A stretch of DNA of 64,000 nt from Escherichia coli. GTDB taxonomy: Bacteria; Pseudomonadota; Gammaproteobacteria; Enterobacterales; Enterobacteriaceae. Below, piece after piece: positions 29,932-34,109 of this stretch; the first letter of the stretch is position 1; each line of letters opens with the position of its first letter. Both the position numbers and the translations under genes were made by a program. The notes beneath the pieces were generated by a model. That model made no database searches. It had not been told where the DNA came from and was given only the letters and a program-made list of their open reading frames with translations. Location: the NCBI RefSeq assembly GCF_048403405.1, contig NZ_CP183129.1. The stretch is one strand, 5' to 3'.

Positions 29932-30144
29932 TCAAAGTGCCACTACATGAACAGCCGCGGGGCCTTTAGGTCCGTTCTCAATACCAAATTCGACTTCCTG
30001 ATTCTCAGTTAACGTTTTGAAATCGTTGCTCTGAATAGCTGAGAAATGGACAAACACATCTTTGCTACCATCTTTCGGCGTGATGAAACCAAAACCTTTT
30101 TCAGGGTTAAACCATTTCACTAAACCAGTCATTTTGTTAGACAT
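29932..30144 (-). CDS. cold-shock protein (CspA family, CspI-like)
   Basis: [23 protein letters not shown]...; RNP motifs. Confidence 0.9.
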
Positions 30145-30508
30145 CATTATTACCTTTTGAAGAAGTTAGCCCTTGGGCAGAATGGTCCGAAAAAAAAATA
30201 TCAGAGAGAAAAACCAACAAGGAAATCTCAAGAGGTACAAATAATAAATTTATAACAATGACTGCTTCAGATAATTTTGTAACAAACCAGAACACCATTA
30301 ACGCATGATTAACCAACCATAGCAAGGATTACTTTTGTAAAGAAAAACACACGAATGAAACAATAGCTTTATTTATTAATAAAACGTGTCATTCTGTCTA
30401 ATGACCTTTTATCTTACCCTTAAGATTTCAAGGATTTTGACTCATGGAAGAGTCCTTTTTATTTAAATTTCACATTCAGCGCTAAAAATAATCCGATTTA
30501 ATATTAAT

Positions 30509-31006
30509 CTACATCTGATATTTTTTATCTCTTAAAGATTCATAAATCCGTTGACAAGTCACTCCTGCGATGTAGCGTTTGTCAGCAATTTCAGCATAAA
30601 GCTGAGCTTCTGCTGCAATATCTCCGAGCATGTTGGTGAGCATTCCTTCGGCGGCTTTGGTTGTTTTGCCTCTGACGGCAGCGGCAAGATTTGCGGTATG
30701 CTGCGCTGCGTCAAGGCGTATGGCATATTTTGTTGCTTCGGCACGCAGCTGGTTAACACTATCAGACAGATCAGCAGCCCTGGCAGAAATTTCAGCGGCT
30801 TTCTGTTGTGCATCTTTAACAGCCTCATCACGGGATATAGTTCGCCCCTGTTCAATTATTCGAGCAGCAAATTGGACATTTACCTCTTGAGATAATTCGG
30901 CAGCATCACGCTCCGCCCATTTTTTTTGCCATCCTCTGTCGCTCCAGACATTACCTACGACAAATCCTACCAACACGAGCAAAATCACCGTGAATATCTG
31001 ATTCAC
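30509..31006 (-). CDS. Rz: i-spanin Rz
   Basis: 165 aa, N-terminal TM plus coiled-coil, directly after the endolysin. Confidence 0.8.
30559..30828 (-). CDS. Rz1: o-spanin Rz1 (lipoprotein embedded in Rz in the +1 frame)
   Basis: Lipobox LTSC, proline-rich mature region; start uncertain. Confidence 0.6.
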
Positions 31007-31536
31007 TGTTCTATCCCCCAGCAGGTTAATGCACTCTCCTGGTCACGACGAATAACCTGACCGTAACAATTATTTGAACGAATGCGGCAATCACGTCCAC
31101 CGTCCTTTATCCACCAGCGAATCGCCTCGCATGCGCCTTTACGATCACCGGCATTAAGCCGCTTATAAAACGTCGACGGAAAACACTTACCAGGGCCAAT
31201 GTTATAGGGACAGAATGACGCGATACCGGCTTTCTGTGGCTCGGTCAGTGGAACTTTTATATTGCGCTCCACCCATGCCAGCGCCTTATCCCGCTCAATG
31301 GCGTTAACCTGGGCGCATTTTTCCTTCGACAGTTTCATTCCCGGAATAACAGGTTTACCGTCCACCATCGTTGCTCCCCGACAGATGGTCCATATGCCGG
31401 AGCCATCGCGGTATGCAGTGGTGTGATTCCCCTCTTTTTCATCCAGAAACTGATCGAGAATGTCAGGGGCAGGAGCACTGGCGGCAATCAGTGCCAGAAC
31501 AGCAGCCGACAGGCTGTATCTGATTTTTACGTTCAT
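31003..31536 (-). CDS. R: SAR endolysin (phage lysozyme, P21 R-like)
   Basis: 177 aa with N-terminal signal-anchor-release segment [24 protein letters not shown] and a lysozyme domain. Confidence 0.85.
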
Positions 31537-31649
31537 GGATATTTATCAGGATTTATCGGCTTCAAATCCCTGGATATGTTAAATCTTACCTCACCAGTGA
31601 TGGGCACTGGCGGGAGGAGGATGTCAATCTGATAAACACAGAGGTGACT

Positions 31650-31910
31650 ATGGATTACACAAATCTACCAAAACAAACTTTTGCTGATTTAATCGCACTC
31701 AGGCAAGCAGTCGTAGCCCTAATCAACTTGTTGCCGGAGAAGGAAAAGGAATTAGTTAAAGCGCTTCTTAACAGAACTGCCGCCGATTTTTCATCATATC
31801 CACTGACAGATGACCTTGCGGACCTTCCTGAATTAATTGCAGCGTCCGCCATTAAGCTTACTGAAGAGATTTACCCTCCTCAAAAATCTTCACAAAATTC
31901 CTGCGAGTAA
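31650..31910 (+). CDS. possible antisense-oriented hypothetical protein (86 aa)
   Basis: Strong RBS gaggtg 5 nt before the ATG; lies in the R/ydfR-like intergenic region on the opposite strand. Confidence 0.25.
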   Translation: MDYTNLPKQTFADLIALRQAVVALINLLPEKEKELVKALLNRTAADFSSYPLTDDLADLPELIAASAIKLTEEIYPPQKSSQNSCE

Positions 31911-32409
31911 CTTCAATGCAATAATCGTAAAACGCCGCAAACTGCTCATCGCGGCGTTTTTTTTCATCTTCAGAAGGAATCAGCACCGACAATTTTTTAT
32001 TCAGATCAGCGACGCTGCCCTCCAGTTTTTCAATGGGCGATTCAATATCATCTTTTTCTGACCGCAATGCCGTCGGTGGCGTCTTCAGAGAACCAGTAAT
32101 TCTTCCCGGTAGCTTTCCTTTGTAGGTTATCCACACATTCTGCGCCTCTAAAATTATGGGGCGCTTTTCCGGCGACTGCTCATCCCCTTCACATAACCCG
32201 GCTGCAACTTCCAGGAAGACCTGTCTGATGCTCCTTCTGGCTGCTGCCTCATAAAACTCCAGCGCGGCACCTTCAACACGGTCCAGCGAGATGTCCAGGT
32301 CAAAAATTTCACCGTCAAAGCGTTTTTTGTCCCTTAATGCTACAGTTACCGCAACTTTATTCTCAAAATTGCGGATCCCTTTCACAATCAGTTCATAGTT
32401 TTGTGTCAT
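31858..32409 (-). CDS. hypothetical protein, YdfR-like, between holin and endolysin
   Basis: 183 aa from MTQNYELIVKGIRNFENK...; same position as ydfR in Qin. Confidence 0.45.
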   Translation of the reverse strand: MTQNYELIVKGIRNFENKVAVTVALRDKKRFDGEIFDLDISLDRVEGAALEFYEAAARRSIRQVFLEVAAGLCEGDEQSPEKRPIILEAQNVWITYKGKLPGRITGSLKTPPTALRSEKDDIESPIEKLEGSVADLNKKLSVLIPSEDEKKRRDEQFAAFYDYCIEVTRRNFVKIFEEGKSLQ

Positions 32410-32413
32410 TGAA

Positions 32414-32629
32414 TTACTCTCCCCGTGCAACCTTACGCTTGTCTTCTTTAATCTTGAAATAAAGGTTTGTCAGGTACGTCAGCAAGCCAAATACCAGACT
32501 ACCCAGCACACCGATTGCAGCCCACTGTGACGGAGTTACTTTATCGAGTAACTGCAATGCCCAGAAACCAGCATTACCAGCCGATGTGCCATAGGCGATA
32601 CCTGTTGTTAACTTATCCATTGATTTCAT
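32414..32629 (-). CDS. S: pinholin (phage 21 S-like holin)
   Basis: 71 aa [31 protein letters not shown]..., two TM segments, paired with a SAR endolysin. Confidence 0.85.
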
Positions 32630-32847
32630 ATCCTCACCCCGATGTACACAGATGGTGCAATATGTTTGAAAAGATCGGAGTCTATGGGGTAGTTTTTATA
32701 GCAAACGTTGTTCTCAACGGCGCTAAAAAACAGACACATTAAAAATGTGGGTAATTATTTTAAAAGAAAATCATATGTTAAATAATAATACGAGATATGT
32801 TTTCATATTTAGTGTACTGTATACGGCCATTTATACAGGAAAAGCCT

Positions 32848-33018
32848 ATGTCAGAACGTAAAGACTCAAAATCACGCCGTAATTATCTCGTTAAATGTTC
32901 CTGCCCAAACTGCACCCAAGAGTCAGAACACAGTTTTTCAAGAATACAAAAAGGTGCCCTTTTGATCTGCCCTCATTGCAACAAAGTATTCCAGACAAAT
33001 CTTAAAGCTGTAGCTTGA
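32848..33018 (+). CDS. YnfN-like small Cys-rich protein
   Basis: 56 aa MSERKDSKSRRNYLVKCSCPNCTQ...CPHCNK; CxC...CxxC zinc-ribbon-like. Confidence 0.5.
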   Translation: MSERKDSKSRRNYLVKCSCPNCTQESEHSFSRIQKGALLICPHCNKVFQTNLKAVA

Positions 33019-33075
33019 TTGATTTTATTCGTAACAAGTATTTTTTATATTTTAATAACATATTTAAAGCAGATA

Positions 33076-33097
33076 ATAAAAAACCCGCCTGAGCGGG
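33076..33097 (-). terminator. intrinsic terminator downstream of the cspB-like gene
   Basis: Hairpin cccgcctgagcggg with U-run on the minus strand. Confidence 0.4.
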
Positions 33098-33381
33098 TTT
33101 AATATTGTGGTACTTTTTGTGGGAGTCATCCACTTACGCACTTTGTTTTGCTATGCCAGCAGTTAGCTTCTGCTGTAAAACTATTCATGCAGCAAACCTG
33201 CACTTCACCACAATGGTTAGCATACTTTTCCTGATTAAGTTATTGCCAAATATGCTGGCCATTGTTTCATGTATTGGACCTCCTTACTATTTATTAAAGA
33301 GATCCAATATTCACCACTCTGTCTGTATCTCCACTCAGGCATCAGCCTTCTTCGTTATCGTATACAGACAAACTATGAATT

Positions 33382-33597
33382 TTAATCAGTAATTATGACA
33401 TTTGCTGCTGCAGGACCTTTAGCACCACTCTCTACAGAGAAGGTAACCTTTTGACCTTCAAATAAGGTTCGATAATTATCATTCTGAATCGCAGAAAAAT
33501 GCACAAACACATCTTTACTACCATCAACAGGAGAAATAAAGCCAAAACCTTTATCAGCGTTAAACCATTTTACTAAACCAGTCATTTTATTTGACAT
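33382..33597 (-). CDS. cold-shock protein (CspB/CspI-like)
   Basis: 71 aa [23 protein letters not shown]... Confidence 0.9.
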
Positions 33598-33896
33598 TCT
33601 ACATTCCTTAACTTGAGCCTTTCGGCATAAATGGCTTGTATAACAGAAACGACTTCGTACTTAATTGGAGAGACTCAAAGAAGGAATAAGTGAATAACAC
33701 CTGAAATGAGAACTGCTTTAGTAAACTACTTCGTATATCGTCTGTTCTTCAAACCGACGCAATCATTAACGCATAGTTGAACATATGAAGCAATGTTTAT
33801 TTTAGACATCCAGCCATCTTCAACCCCATCAAAAAACTATAGCTTTCTTCAGGAACGTGTGTATAGTGCGCCAAGTTATCAGTATTAAGGAATTTT

Positions 33897-34109
33897 TTGT
33901 CCCGTAAAATGACAGGAATTCTCAAAACCTTTGACGGCAAAAGCGGCAAAGGTCTTATAACCCCATCCGATGGTCGTATCGATGTCCAGCTTCATGTTTC
34001 AGCGCTCAATCTCCGCGATGCAGAAGAAATTACCACCGGATTACGCGTGGAATTTTGCCGGATAAATGGTCTGCGTGGACCATCAGCTGCCAATGTTTAC
34101 CTTTCATGA
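33897..34109 (+). CDS. cold-shock-like protein (CspF/CspH-like)
   Basis: 70 aa [23 protein letters not shown]... Confidence 0.85.

Follow-up and report, generated by a model that had tools for sequence, protein, structure and literature searches.

The closest described counterpart of the genes treated here is the late region of Qin, a defective prophage of Escherichia coli K-12, a strain whose csp family members have been under study since the 1990s. In Qin the genes run in the order ynfT-ydfK-pinQ ... nohA-ynfO-ydfO-gnsB-ynfN-ynfR-ynfQ-cspI-rzpQ-rrrQ-ydfR-essQ-ynfU-cspB-cspF-ynfS-ydfT. Here we examine a similar cold-shock gene cargo in a stretch of 64,000 nucleotides (nt) of another E. coli genome (NCBI RefSeq assembly GCF_048403405.1, contig NZ_CP183129.1), hereafter the window, to which all positions refer. 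Between prfC and yjjG, the window contains a lambdoid prophage of ~48 kb that appears complete, and, judged from its sequence, the late region of this prophage is the intact counterpart of the Qin remnant of K-12. We establish the identity, anatomy, slot, conservation and distribution of the cargo, and we consider it highly probable that it is expressed in the lysogen as a cold-responsive, and more broadly stress-responsive, set of genes that supplements the host Csp pool.

In K-12, cold induction is listed for cspB and cspI (PMC6719143, PMC9800685), YnfR rises strongly on cold shock (PMC6001520), ydfK has been grouped under cold (PMC9501238), and cspI, ynfQ and ynfN are co-induced in an SspA-dependent manner, with ynfQ labelled 'cold shock induced' (PMC11228462). 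In long-term stationary phase, ydfK, ynaE, cspI, ynfN, cspB and cspF go up together, with ynaE co-regulated with ydfK, and knockouts of cspB and cspI are outcompeted (PMC7406224). Within the literature examined, the evidence of cold induction is direct for cspB, cspI and ynfR, whereas it consists of annotation labels for ynfQ and ydfK and of co-expression for gnsB and ynfN. The ynaM-ynaE pair of the Rac prophage is paralogous to ynfT-ydfK but lies in a different prophage; in K-12, the YnaM and YnfT sequences are the same (PMC6001520).

The cold-shock cargo of the prophage is already known, in that RefSeq has a name for every gene and existing PHROG families take in most of the proteins; the PHROG search retrieved no match for the ynfQ product, the ynfU product or that of a ynfS-like small open reading frame (sORF). 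A search of one literature library returned nothing relevant on csp genes as lambdoid morons or on the paralogy of ymcF and ynfQ. In the window, the Qin cold-shock set is found on an apparently complete prophage close to the viable phages 2H10 and PhiR63_1, and because of this we regard the module genes, which ~29% of complete E. coli genomes carry, as mobile cargo and not as an oddity of K-12. Phages of the 2H10/PhiR63_1 type would also make a clean system for studying lysogen fitness at low temperature or during long-term stationary phase.

The csp genes and the Qin-type late region

All three CspA-family paralogues called by the initial annotation, two on the minus strand and one on the plus strand, were borne out, each with a match to the cold-shock domain (CSD) family PF00313 that is well above the cutoff of 27 bits. 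The two minus-strand genes encode CspA-family proteins, namely cspI (29932-30144; 70 amino acids (aa), E = 1.7e-31, 108.3 bits) and cspB (33382-33597; 71 aa, E = 1.1e-31, 108.9 bits), while the plus-strand gene, cspF (33897-34109; 70 aa, TTG start, E = 8.4e-21, 74.1 bits), encodes a divergent paralogue of the CspF/CspH type. In NCBIfam, CspB reaches 143.3 bits for the subfamily 'RNA chaperone/antiterminator CspA' (cutoff 130), and CspF matches NF012007 CspF (158.4 bits, cutoff 111). When aligned, CspB and CspI both show RNP1 (KGFGFI) and RNP2 (VFVHF) motifs with aromatic residues identical to those of CspA. cspF and cspB are transcribed divergently.

The minus-strand csp genes are preceded by long leaders. 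For cspB, the leader and promoter occupy 33598-33830 (minus strand), with a leader of ~160 nt (33598-33758) that contains the cold box TGAAGAACAGAC, a promoter motif ATGCGTTAATG (33764-33774) and an AT-rich upstream element; for cspI, the leader and promoter region occupies 30145-30340 (minus strand), with a leader of ~145-148 nt and the conserved motif CATGCGTTAATG (30296-30307). The leader lengths, like the inducibility of the genes, are cited from PMC6719143 and PMC9800685, and ATGCGTTAATG sits at a distance that fits the published lengths. Compared with K-12, 159/161 leader positions are identical for cspB (98.8%) and 143/149 for cspI (96.0%), and the cspB promoter is identical at 72/72 positions. 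The promoter motif ATGCGTTAATG, the cspB cold box TGAAGAACAGAC and the downstream-box region after the start codon are also held in common in an alignment with K-12 cspA and cspG. Against the Rfam cspA thermoregulator (RF01766, gathering score 78), a model that spans the whole cspA mRNA with its coding sequence included, cspB scored 156.7 bits and cspI 112.3 bits, both as full-length model matches, and the cspB leader aligned to it with high posterior probability.

The initial annotation had also described the cargo as mirroring that of Qin, and this is well supported, as the cargo is collinear with that of Qin in the same gene order and orientation, with 93-100% protein identity and with shared late-region blocks at 92-98% DNA identity. 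CspI is identical to its K-12 counterpart at 70/70 residues, CspB at 70/71, CspF at 69/70, GnsB at 53/57 and YnfU at 54/56, and YnfN is identical at 48/51 over the part kept in K-12. The two prophages nevertheless differ in several respects. Tail and head genes of ~24 kb (window ~3373-27220) are present here and lost from Qin; ydfO of Qin is absent from the window, where a YbcW-like open reading frame (ORF) takes its position; YnfN is 76 aa long here and 51 aa in Qin; ynfR is shortened in the window; and ydfR is a 183-aa mosaic variant unlike that of Qin. The window prophage is integrated between prfC and yjjG, with the integrase next to yjjG, whereas Qin lies between ydfJ and rspB. The early region, the immunity region (dicA/dicC/dicB/dicF and relBE in Qin) and the integrase are unrelated to those of Qin apart from one match of 107 base pairs (bp). 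Because the early region and the insertion site differ, we interpret the prophage as another lambdoid backbone that bears a late region of the Qin type, and not as Qin itself. The sole early-region likeness, at 42927-43033 (107 bp at 93.5%), matches DNA just upstream of dicF, at 19252-19358 of our K-12 locus L003.

Cargo islands, exchangeable slots and conservation

The cargo consists of three AT-rich islands made of short transcription units. The left island, from Q to the holin gene, contains cspF-ynfS, cspB and ynfU (37.0% GC); the right island, from Rz to the terminase genes, contains cspI-ynfQ-(ynfR), ynfN, gnsB, the YbcW-like ORF and ynfO (36.8% GC); and the third, in the tail-fibre/att region at the prfC-side end, contains ynfT-ydfK (33.6% GC). 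GC content elsewhere is 46.9% in the lysis cassette, 46.2% in Q, 56.6% in the structural genes and 49.7% in the host flank. Read along the late (minus) strand, the order is Q, a candidate late promoter pR', a hairpin and probable tR', the left island, the lysis cassette, the right island and the terminase gene nohA. The proposal that these genes form a moron set in the late region is supported by the AT-rich islands, by their own terminators and by a Q-holin slot that is filled differently in a relative.

The upstream edge of the left slot is formed by an antiterminator gene of the ydfT/quuQ type (Q; 34532-35284, minus strand), whose 250-aa product matches phrog_127 over its full length (E = 1e-107) and is identical to K-12 YdfT at 232/250 residues. 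Just downstream of Q, a candidate pR' (TTGCAT, 17 nt, TAAAAT) can be read at 34472-34500 on the minus strand, although our promoter scan did not flag it. It is followed by a strong hairpin (34403-34426) that is active in prediction on both strands, terminating cspF-ynfS on the plus strand and likely serving as tR' downstream of pR' on the minus strand. A G+C-rich hairpin with T-runs on both sides (33081-33100, both strands) would act as a two-way terminator between cspB (minus) and ynfU (plus). On the minus strand, the hairpin GGCTCC-TTCG-GGAGC followed by six T (29705-29725) is the likely terminator of the cspI-ynfQ unit, its stem being picked up on the plus strand as well by the terminator scan, and a further terminator-like hairpin with a T-run lies downstream of gnsB (29000-29021). 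Terminator-like sites are enriched in the cargo region as a whole, with 14 found where 5.7 +/- 2.3 were expected.

The two late islands are separated by a lysis cassette belonging to the phage core (30509-32629), all on the minus strand and made up of rzpQ with embedded rzoQ (30509-31006), rrrQ (31003-31536), a ydfR-like gene (31858-32409) and the holin gene essQ (32414-32629). The range given in the initial annotation for the cold-shock set, 29932-34109, takes in this whole cassette, which is not cold-shock cargo. The 183-aa mosaic product of the ydfR-like gene matches phrog_2091 from end to end; RefSeq treats the gene as an 'incomplete pseudogene', yet the 183-aa ORF is annotated in phage 2H10. 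The mosaic swap places ~655 bp in the window where K-12 has 90 bp, and it yields an overlapping ORF on the plus strand (31644-31910, 88 aa) with a match to phrog_2572.

A comparison with the Shiga toxin (Stx) phage Stx2c_JNE110649, which has the arrangement Q-stx-S, clarifies the nature of the left slot. This phage shares with the window the same Q gene (93.8%) and the early region (96-97%), and the homology stops at 34449, a short way beyond the candidate pR'. Where the window has cspF, cspB and ynfU, between pR'/tR' and the holin gene, the phage carries foreign cargo, namely stx2A, stx2B, a DNA methylase and other ORFs; the csp cargo thus occupies the Q-to-holin slot that holds Shiga toxin in related phages. 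Many genomes and phages also have the same lysis cassette but no csp genes. Because the Stx2c phage fills the Q-holin slot otherwise and the cassette is often free of csp genes, we place the csp genes in canonical exchangeable lambdoid cargo slots. Stx toxin is expressed mainly via Q-dependent late transcription; unlike stx, the csp genes appear to have cold-responsive promoters and leaders of their own.

The accompanying cargo is larger than was first described. The GnsB-like and YnfN-like genes listed in the initial annotation are real, but both lie just left of 29932-34109 (29084-29660) and not within it. The first, gnsB (29084-29257, minus strand), encodes 57 aa with a PF08178 match (E = 7.9e-33, 112.6 bits, cutoff 27); overproduction of GnsA or GnsB changes membrane lipids at low temperature. 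The second, ynfN (29430-29660, minus strand), encodes the full-length 76-aa form, matching phrog_3425 (length 76 aa) at 1-76/76 (E = 1e-55), and this form is shared by the window and 10/11 sampled copies, while K-12 YnfN (L003, 7955-8110) is N-terminally shortened to 51 aa by a 1-bp deletion. Members overlooked by the initial annotation are ynfQ, an ynfR remnant, ynfU, the ynfS-like sORF and a YnaM/YnfT-family sORF. ynfQ (29733-29921, minus strand) starts with ATT 10 nt past the cspI stop codon, probably shares the cspI transcript, and encodes a four-Cys zinc-ribbon-like protein of 62 aa that is identical to K-12 YnfQ at 59/62 residues and to YmcF at 42/62. The ynfR remnant (29692-29730, minus strand) has 12 codons as opposed to 21 in K-12 and is flagged 'too short' in RefSeq; the shortened gene overlaps the hairpin terminator 3' of ynfQ, and its K-12 product is cold-induced (PMC6001520). 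On the plus strand, and antisense to the late transcript, ynfU (32848-33018) encodes a 56-aa zinc-binding protein (PF23499, E = 1.1e-30; NF038384, 79.5 bits, cutoff 36), and the ynfS-like sORF (34164-34253, plus strand; 29 aa) lies downstream of cspF and is identical to K-12 YnfS at 25/29 residues. At the terminase-side edge of the right island, a gene of the YlcI/YnfO family (ynfO; 28137-28331, plus strand) is annotated in RefSeq and matches phrog_949, and the YbcW-like ORF (28582-28788, minus strand; 68 aa) matches phrog_657 over its full length (E = 5e-48) and is annotated YbcW in phages Tritos and PhiR63_1.

The initial annotation had also named a YdfK-like gene at the other end of the prophage, and such a gene is present beside the prfC-side end (ydfK, 1960-2193, plus strand). 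Its 77-aa product is 97.4% identical to K-12 YdfK by tblastn, matches phrog_2718 over its full length and is called 'cold shock protein YdfK' in RefSeq. The YnaM/YnfT-family sORF (1778-1891, plus strand; 37 aa) lies 68 nt upstream of ydfK and matches NCBIfam NF041477 (60 bits, cutoff 35) and phrog_35882. The outermost part of the prophage on the prfC side contains a DinI-like gene (1103-1351, plus strand; phrog_189), which adjoins the ynfT-ydfK island.

The module, counted where >=80% of it lies in one place, was found in 1581/5426 complete E. coli genomes (29%), as well as in the isolated phages 2H10, PhiR63_1, HannyBb and Tritos. The window stretch 28500-35300 (6.8 kb) is 100% identical to the complete genomes YDC107, TUM1226 and CNR65D6, and 98.5% identical to CFT073. 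Phages 2H10 (Glaedevirus) and PhiR63_1 align with 79-90% of the prophage (95.5-98.2% identity) and, like the window, carry intact cspF, cspB, cspI, ynfN and gnsB and the long YdfR form; they differ from the window by mosaicism in the tail-fibre and early regions, and in PhiR63_1 an additional ~1.7 kb separates Q from cspF. For conservation, we sampled 11 copies, seven of them chromosomal (K-12 included) and four from isolated phages. The initial annotation had treated pseudogenisation in homologues as a point that would speak against its proposal. In the core cargo no such decay was found, with cspI, cspB, ynfQ, gnsB and ynfU intact in 11/11 copies and ynfN intact in all but K-12, while cspF is partly affected, as described below. 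In strain CX04 (our locus L011, 2209-3232), IS1 replaces rrrQ and rzpQ and ydfR is frameshifted, and all cargo genes are intact.

Proposed role of the cargo

The lysogen-expressed role that we favour would operate as follows. Each cargo island would be composed of short units with their own promoters and hairpin terminators, and, since the islands lie downstream of the late terminator tR', their expression in the lysogen would be independent of the lytic programme. By analogy with cspA, the cspB and cspI mRNAs, with cold box and downstream box, would be short-lived and poorly translated at 37 C, and would become stable and well translated upon a temperature downshift. Because CspB and CspI keep the RNP1/RNP2 aromatic residues, they should add RNA-chaperone/antiterminator capacity to the CspA/CspG/CspE pool, with YnfQ made from the cspI transcript and with gnsB, ynfN and ydfK encoding co-regulated small proteins. 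In the lytic cycle, polymerase that starts at pR' and is modified by Q would transcribe the same-strand genes cspB, cspI, ynfQ, ynfN and gnsB as well, and would cross cspF, ynfS and ynfU in the antisense direction.

A number of observations limit or weigh against this reading. By no criterion tried here is cspF a cold-shock gene. In alignment, RNP1 and RNP2 are replaced in CspF by KGLI and VQLHV, and the changes W11T, F18K, F20L, F31Q and F34V remove five nucleic-acid-binding aromatic residues; CspF and CspH are described as aromatic-poor, likewise without the RNP aromatics, and with no function assigned (PMC6719143). The Rfam scan returned neither RF01766 nor any other match for cspF, and hence no cspA-type leader was detected there, and a 1-bp deletion frameshifts cspF in 3/11 copies, in each of which ynfS is lost as well. 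The label 'cold-shock-inducible' of the initial annotation would fit cspB and cspI, which carry the cspA-type leader and whose K-12 orthologues are listed as cold-induced, but not cspF, which is a decaying or functionally different paralogue, dispensable in some lineages. Even for cspI, the leader part aligns to RF01766 with low posterior probability, many non-canonical pairs and 16 nt of the cold-box region missing; given this weak alignment and the inclusion of coding sequence in the model, the cspI thermosensor fold stays putative. A generic sigma-70 scan of the region found 16 promoter-like sites versus 15.7 in shuffled sequence, and because it shows no enrichment, our promoter assignments rest on conservation with the K-12 csp promoters. 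Equilibrium folding of the cspA, cspB, cspI, cspG and cspF mRNAs at 37, 25, 15 and 10 C showed no opening of the Shine-Dalgarno/AUG region in the cold even in the cspA control (0.29 to 0.21), and with its positive control failing, this result is uninformative either way. The published cold form is probably kinetically trapped. The ratio of nonsynonymous to synonymous polymorphism (pN/pS) of the main cargo, 0-0.22, is low, but values of this kind (dN/dS) are indicative only because the sampled copies amount to 2-3 independent haplotypes. In pathogenic E. coli, cspB and cspI were unresponsive to cold according to a report cited by PMC7406224. We would like to note that we infer cold induction and host benefit from the K-12 literature, and that redundancy with host cspA, cspG and cspE may mask a lysogen phenotype.

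The cargo might instead serve the phage, with CspB and CspI acting as RNA chaperones or antiterminators that sustain late transcription, translation and lysis in the cold, or that tune the timing of induction and lysis. The position of cspB, cspI, ynfQ, ynfN and gnsB on the late-operon strand between Q and the terminase genes fits this explanation, as do the placement of cspB and cspI just downstream of pR'-tR' and of Rz, the retention of the module by plaque-forming isolated phages, and the NCBIfam subfamily to which CspB is assigned. We nevertheless hold it to be unlikely, since the cargo remains intact where lysis or structural genes have been destroyed (K-12 Qin and CX04), since its genes still have cspA-type promoters and leaders of their own, with 96-100% identity to the K-12 sequences, and since K-12 cspB and cspI knockouts show a host phenotype although Qin is defective (PMC7406224). 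That the cargo outlasts phage genes in defective prophages argues for a benefit to the lysogen. The same survival amid the decay of adjoining phage genes speaks against neutral hitch-hiking, whereby AT-rich genes, probably silenced by H-NS, would be kept only through linkage to a successful lysis cassette and would benefit neither phage nor host. Such passive carriage would account for the frameshifted copies of cspF, for the shortening of ynfR in the window and of ynfN in K-12, for the 0 synonymous versus 4 nonsynonymous differences in ynfS, and for the many related prophages without the cargo. In contrast, cspI shows 0 nonsynonymous versus 8-9 synonymous differences between haplotypes, the pN/pS values are low, cspI, cspB, ynfQ and gnsB are intact throughout the sample, and loss of cspB or cspI impairs competition (PMC7406224), all of which make hitch-hiking quite improbable.

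A role in anti-phage defence or addiction, through a retron-like CSD effector or a GnsB toxin-antitoxin pair directed against superinfection, seems to us very improbable. CspB and CspI do resemble retron CSD effectors at scores below threshold (NF038236, 50-55 bits, cutoff 82; PADLOC CSD_V, 54-55 bits), and both Pfam and RefSeq label GnsA/GnsB an addiction-module toxin. The retron reading was rejected, as the similarity is that of a generic cold-shock domain under the curated cutoffs; no reverse transcriptase is annotated in the prophage, no retron-type noncoding RNA was found at the Rfam gathering score, no further cargo protein matches PADLOC, and the Csp proteins are almost the same as CspA-family members of the housekeeping type. 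A GnsB-YnfN toxin-antitoxin pair modelled on GnsA-YmcE was likewise rejected, as YnfN and YmcE agree at 17/51 residues, which is noise, without any DNA match. No YmcE homologue was found beside gnsB, the upstream gene ynfN being 172 nt away and not homologous.

Origin of the chromosomal cspG locus and other features of the prophage

The K-12 chromosome carries a locus, cspH|cspG-ymcF-ymcE-gnsA (our L004, 1464-2741), that is paralogous to both late islands of the window (29084-30292 and 33382-34109). From cspH across the intergenic region into the 5' part of cspG, the sequence matches cspF|cspB at 76.5% over 635 nt, the two genes being a divergent pair in both; cspG-ymcF matches cspI-ynfQ at 74.4%, with YmcF and YnfQ having the same ITxH start; and gnsA matches gnsB at 72.8%, with 36/57 residues shared by GnsA and GnsB. 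In contrast to the window, the chromosomal locus is a single fused island without a lysis cassette, and its ymcE is unrelated to ynfN. A match to the chromosomal locus or to the module was found in 5418/5426 complete genomes, and the locus looks close to universal.

Within cspG, the nearest relative switches at ~codon 24, near position 70 of the coding sequence. The 5' segment (the leader and the first 70 nt of coding sequence) is 81% identical to cspB, compared with 65% to cspA, whereas the 3' segment is 71% identical to cspI and 59% to cspB. To the left of the breakpoint, 87 informative sites are cspB-like and 20 cspI-like, and to the right, 14 are cspB-like and 31 cspI-like, a pattern reached in 0/5000 permutations; the flanking genes agree with the switch from cspB at the 5' side to cspI at the 3' side on both sides. 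One homologous recombination event, in an ancestral phage of this kind, between cspB-like and cspI-like paralogues such as cspB and cspI, which lie in the same orientation 3.4 kb apart, would delete ynfU and the whole lysis cassette, and the product, cspF | cspB(5')::cspI(3')-ynfQ-...-gnsB, would have the architecture of cspH | cspG-ymcF-...-gnsA. On these sequence comparisons, it is a real possibility, if at somewhat less than even chances, that phage modules of this type were the source of the chromosomal cspH-cspG-ymcF-gnsA locus. The fused cspB::cspI form was found in no phage of the collection searched, and no description of a deletion origin of cspG was found in the searchable literature, which does not cover the classic csp papers. 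If true, a major 'host' cold-shock gene, cspG, would be domesticated phage cargo, and this origin is the sole part of the present work that could add something new.

Some further features of the window lie outside the cargo. A Pin-type serine recombinase gene (2574-3164, plus strand) adjoins fragments of tail-fibre and tail-fibre-assembly genes (3392-5059); like the region at pinQ in Qin, this is probably a host-range segment that can invert. The ORF that follows encodes the side tail fibre (5059-7440, minus strand; 793 aa) and has a long, highly repetitive N-terminal region rich in Ala, Ser, Thr, Glu and Lys, with repeats of the AAKTSETNAKSSQTAAK type. The tail region also contains a 769-bp insertion (18212-18981) relative to the otherwise near-identical NZ_OU701452.1. 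Three tandem tRNA-Leu genes (52065-52382, plus strand) are located in the host flank, ~3 kb past the integrase-side end, and are not the attachment site. In the early region, Rfam identified a C4 antisense RNA (40464-40551, minus strand; 82.8 bits) and an isrK Hfq-binding RNA (40576-40652, minus strand; 55.4 bits), which lie side by side under an ORF annotated as 'ash family protein' and may form an antisense control module of the P1/P7 type.

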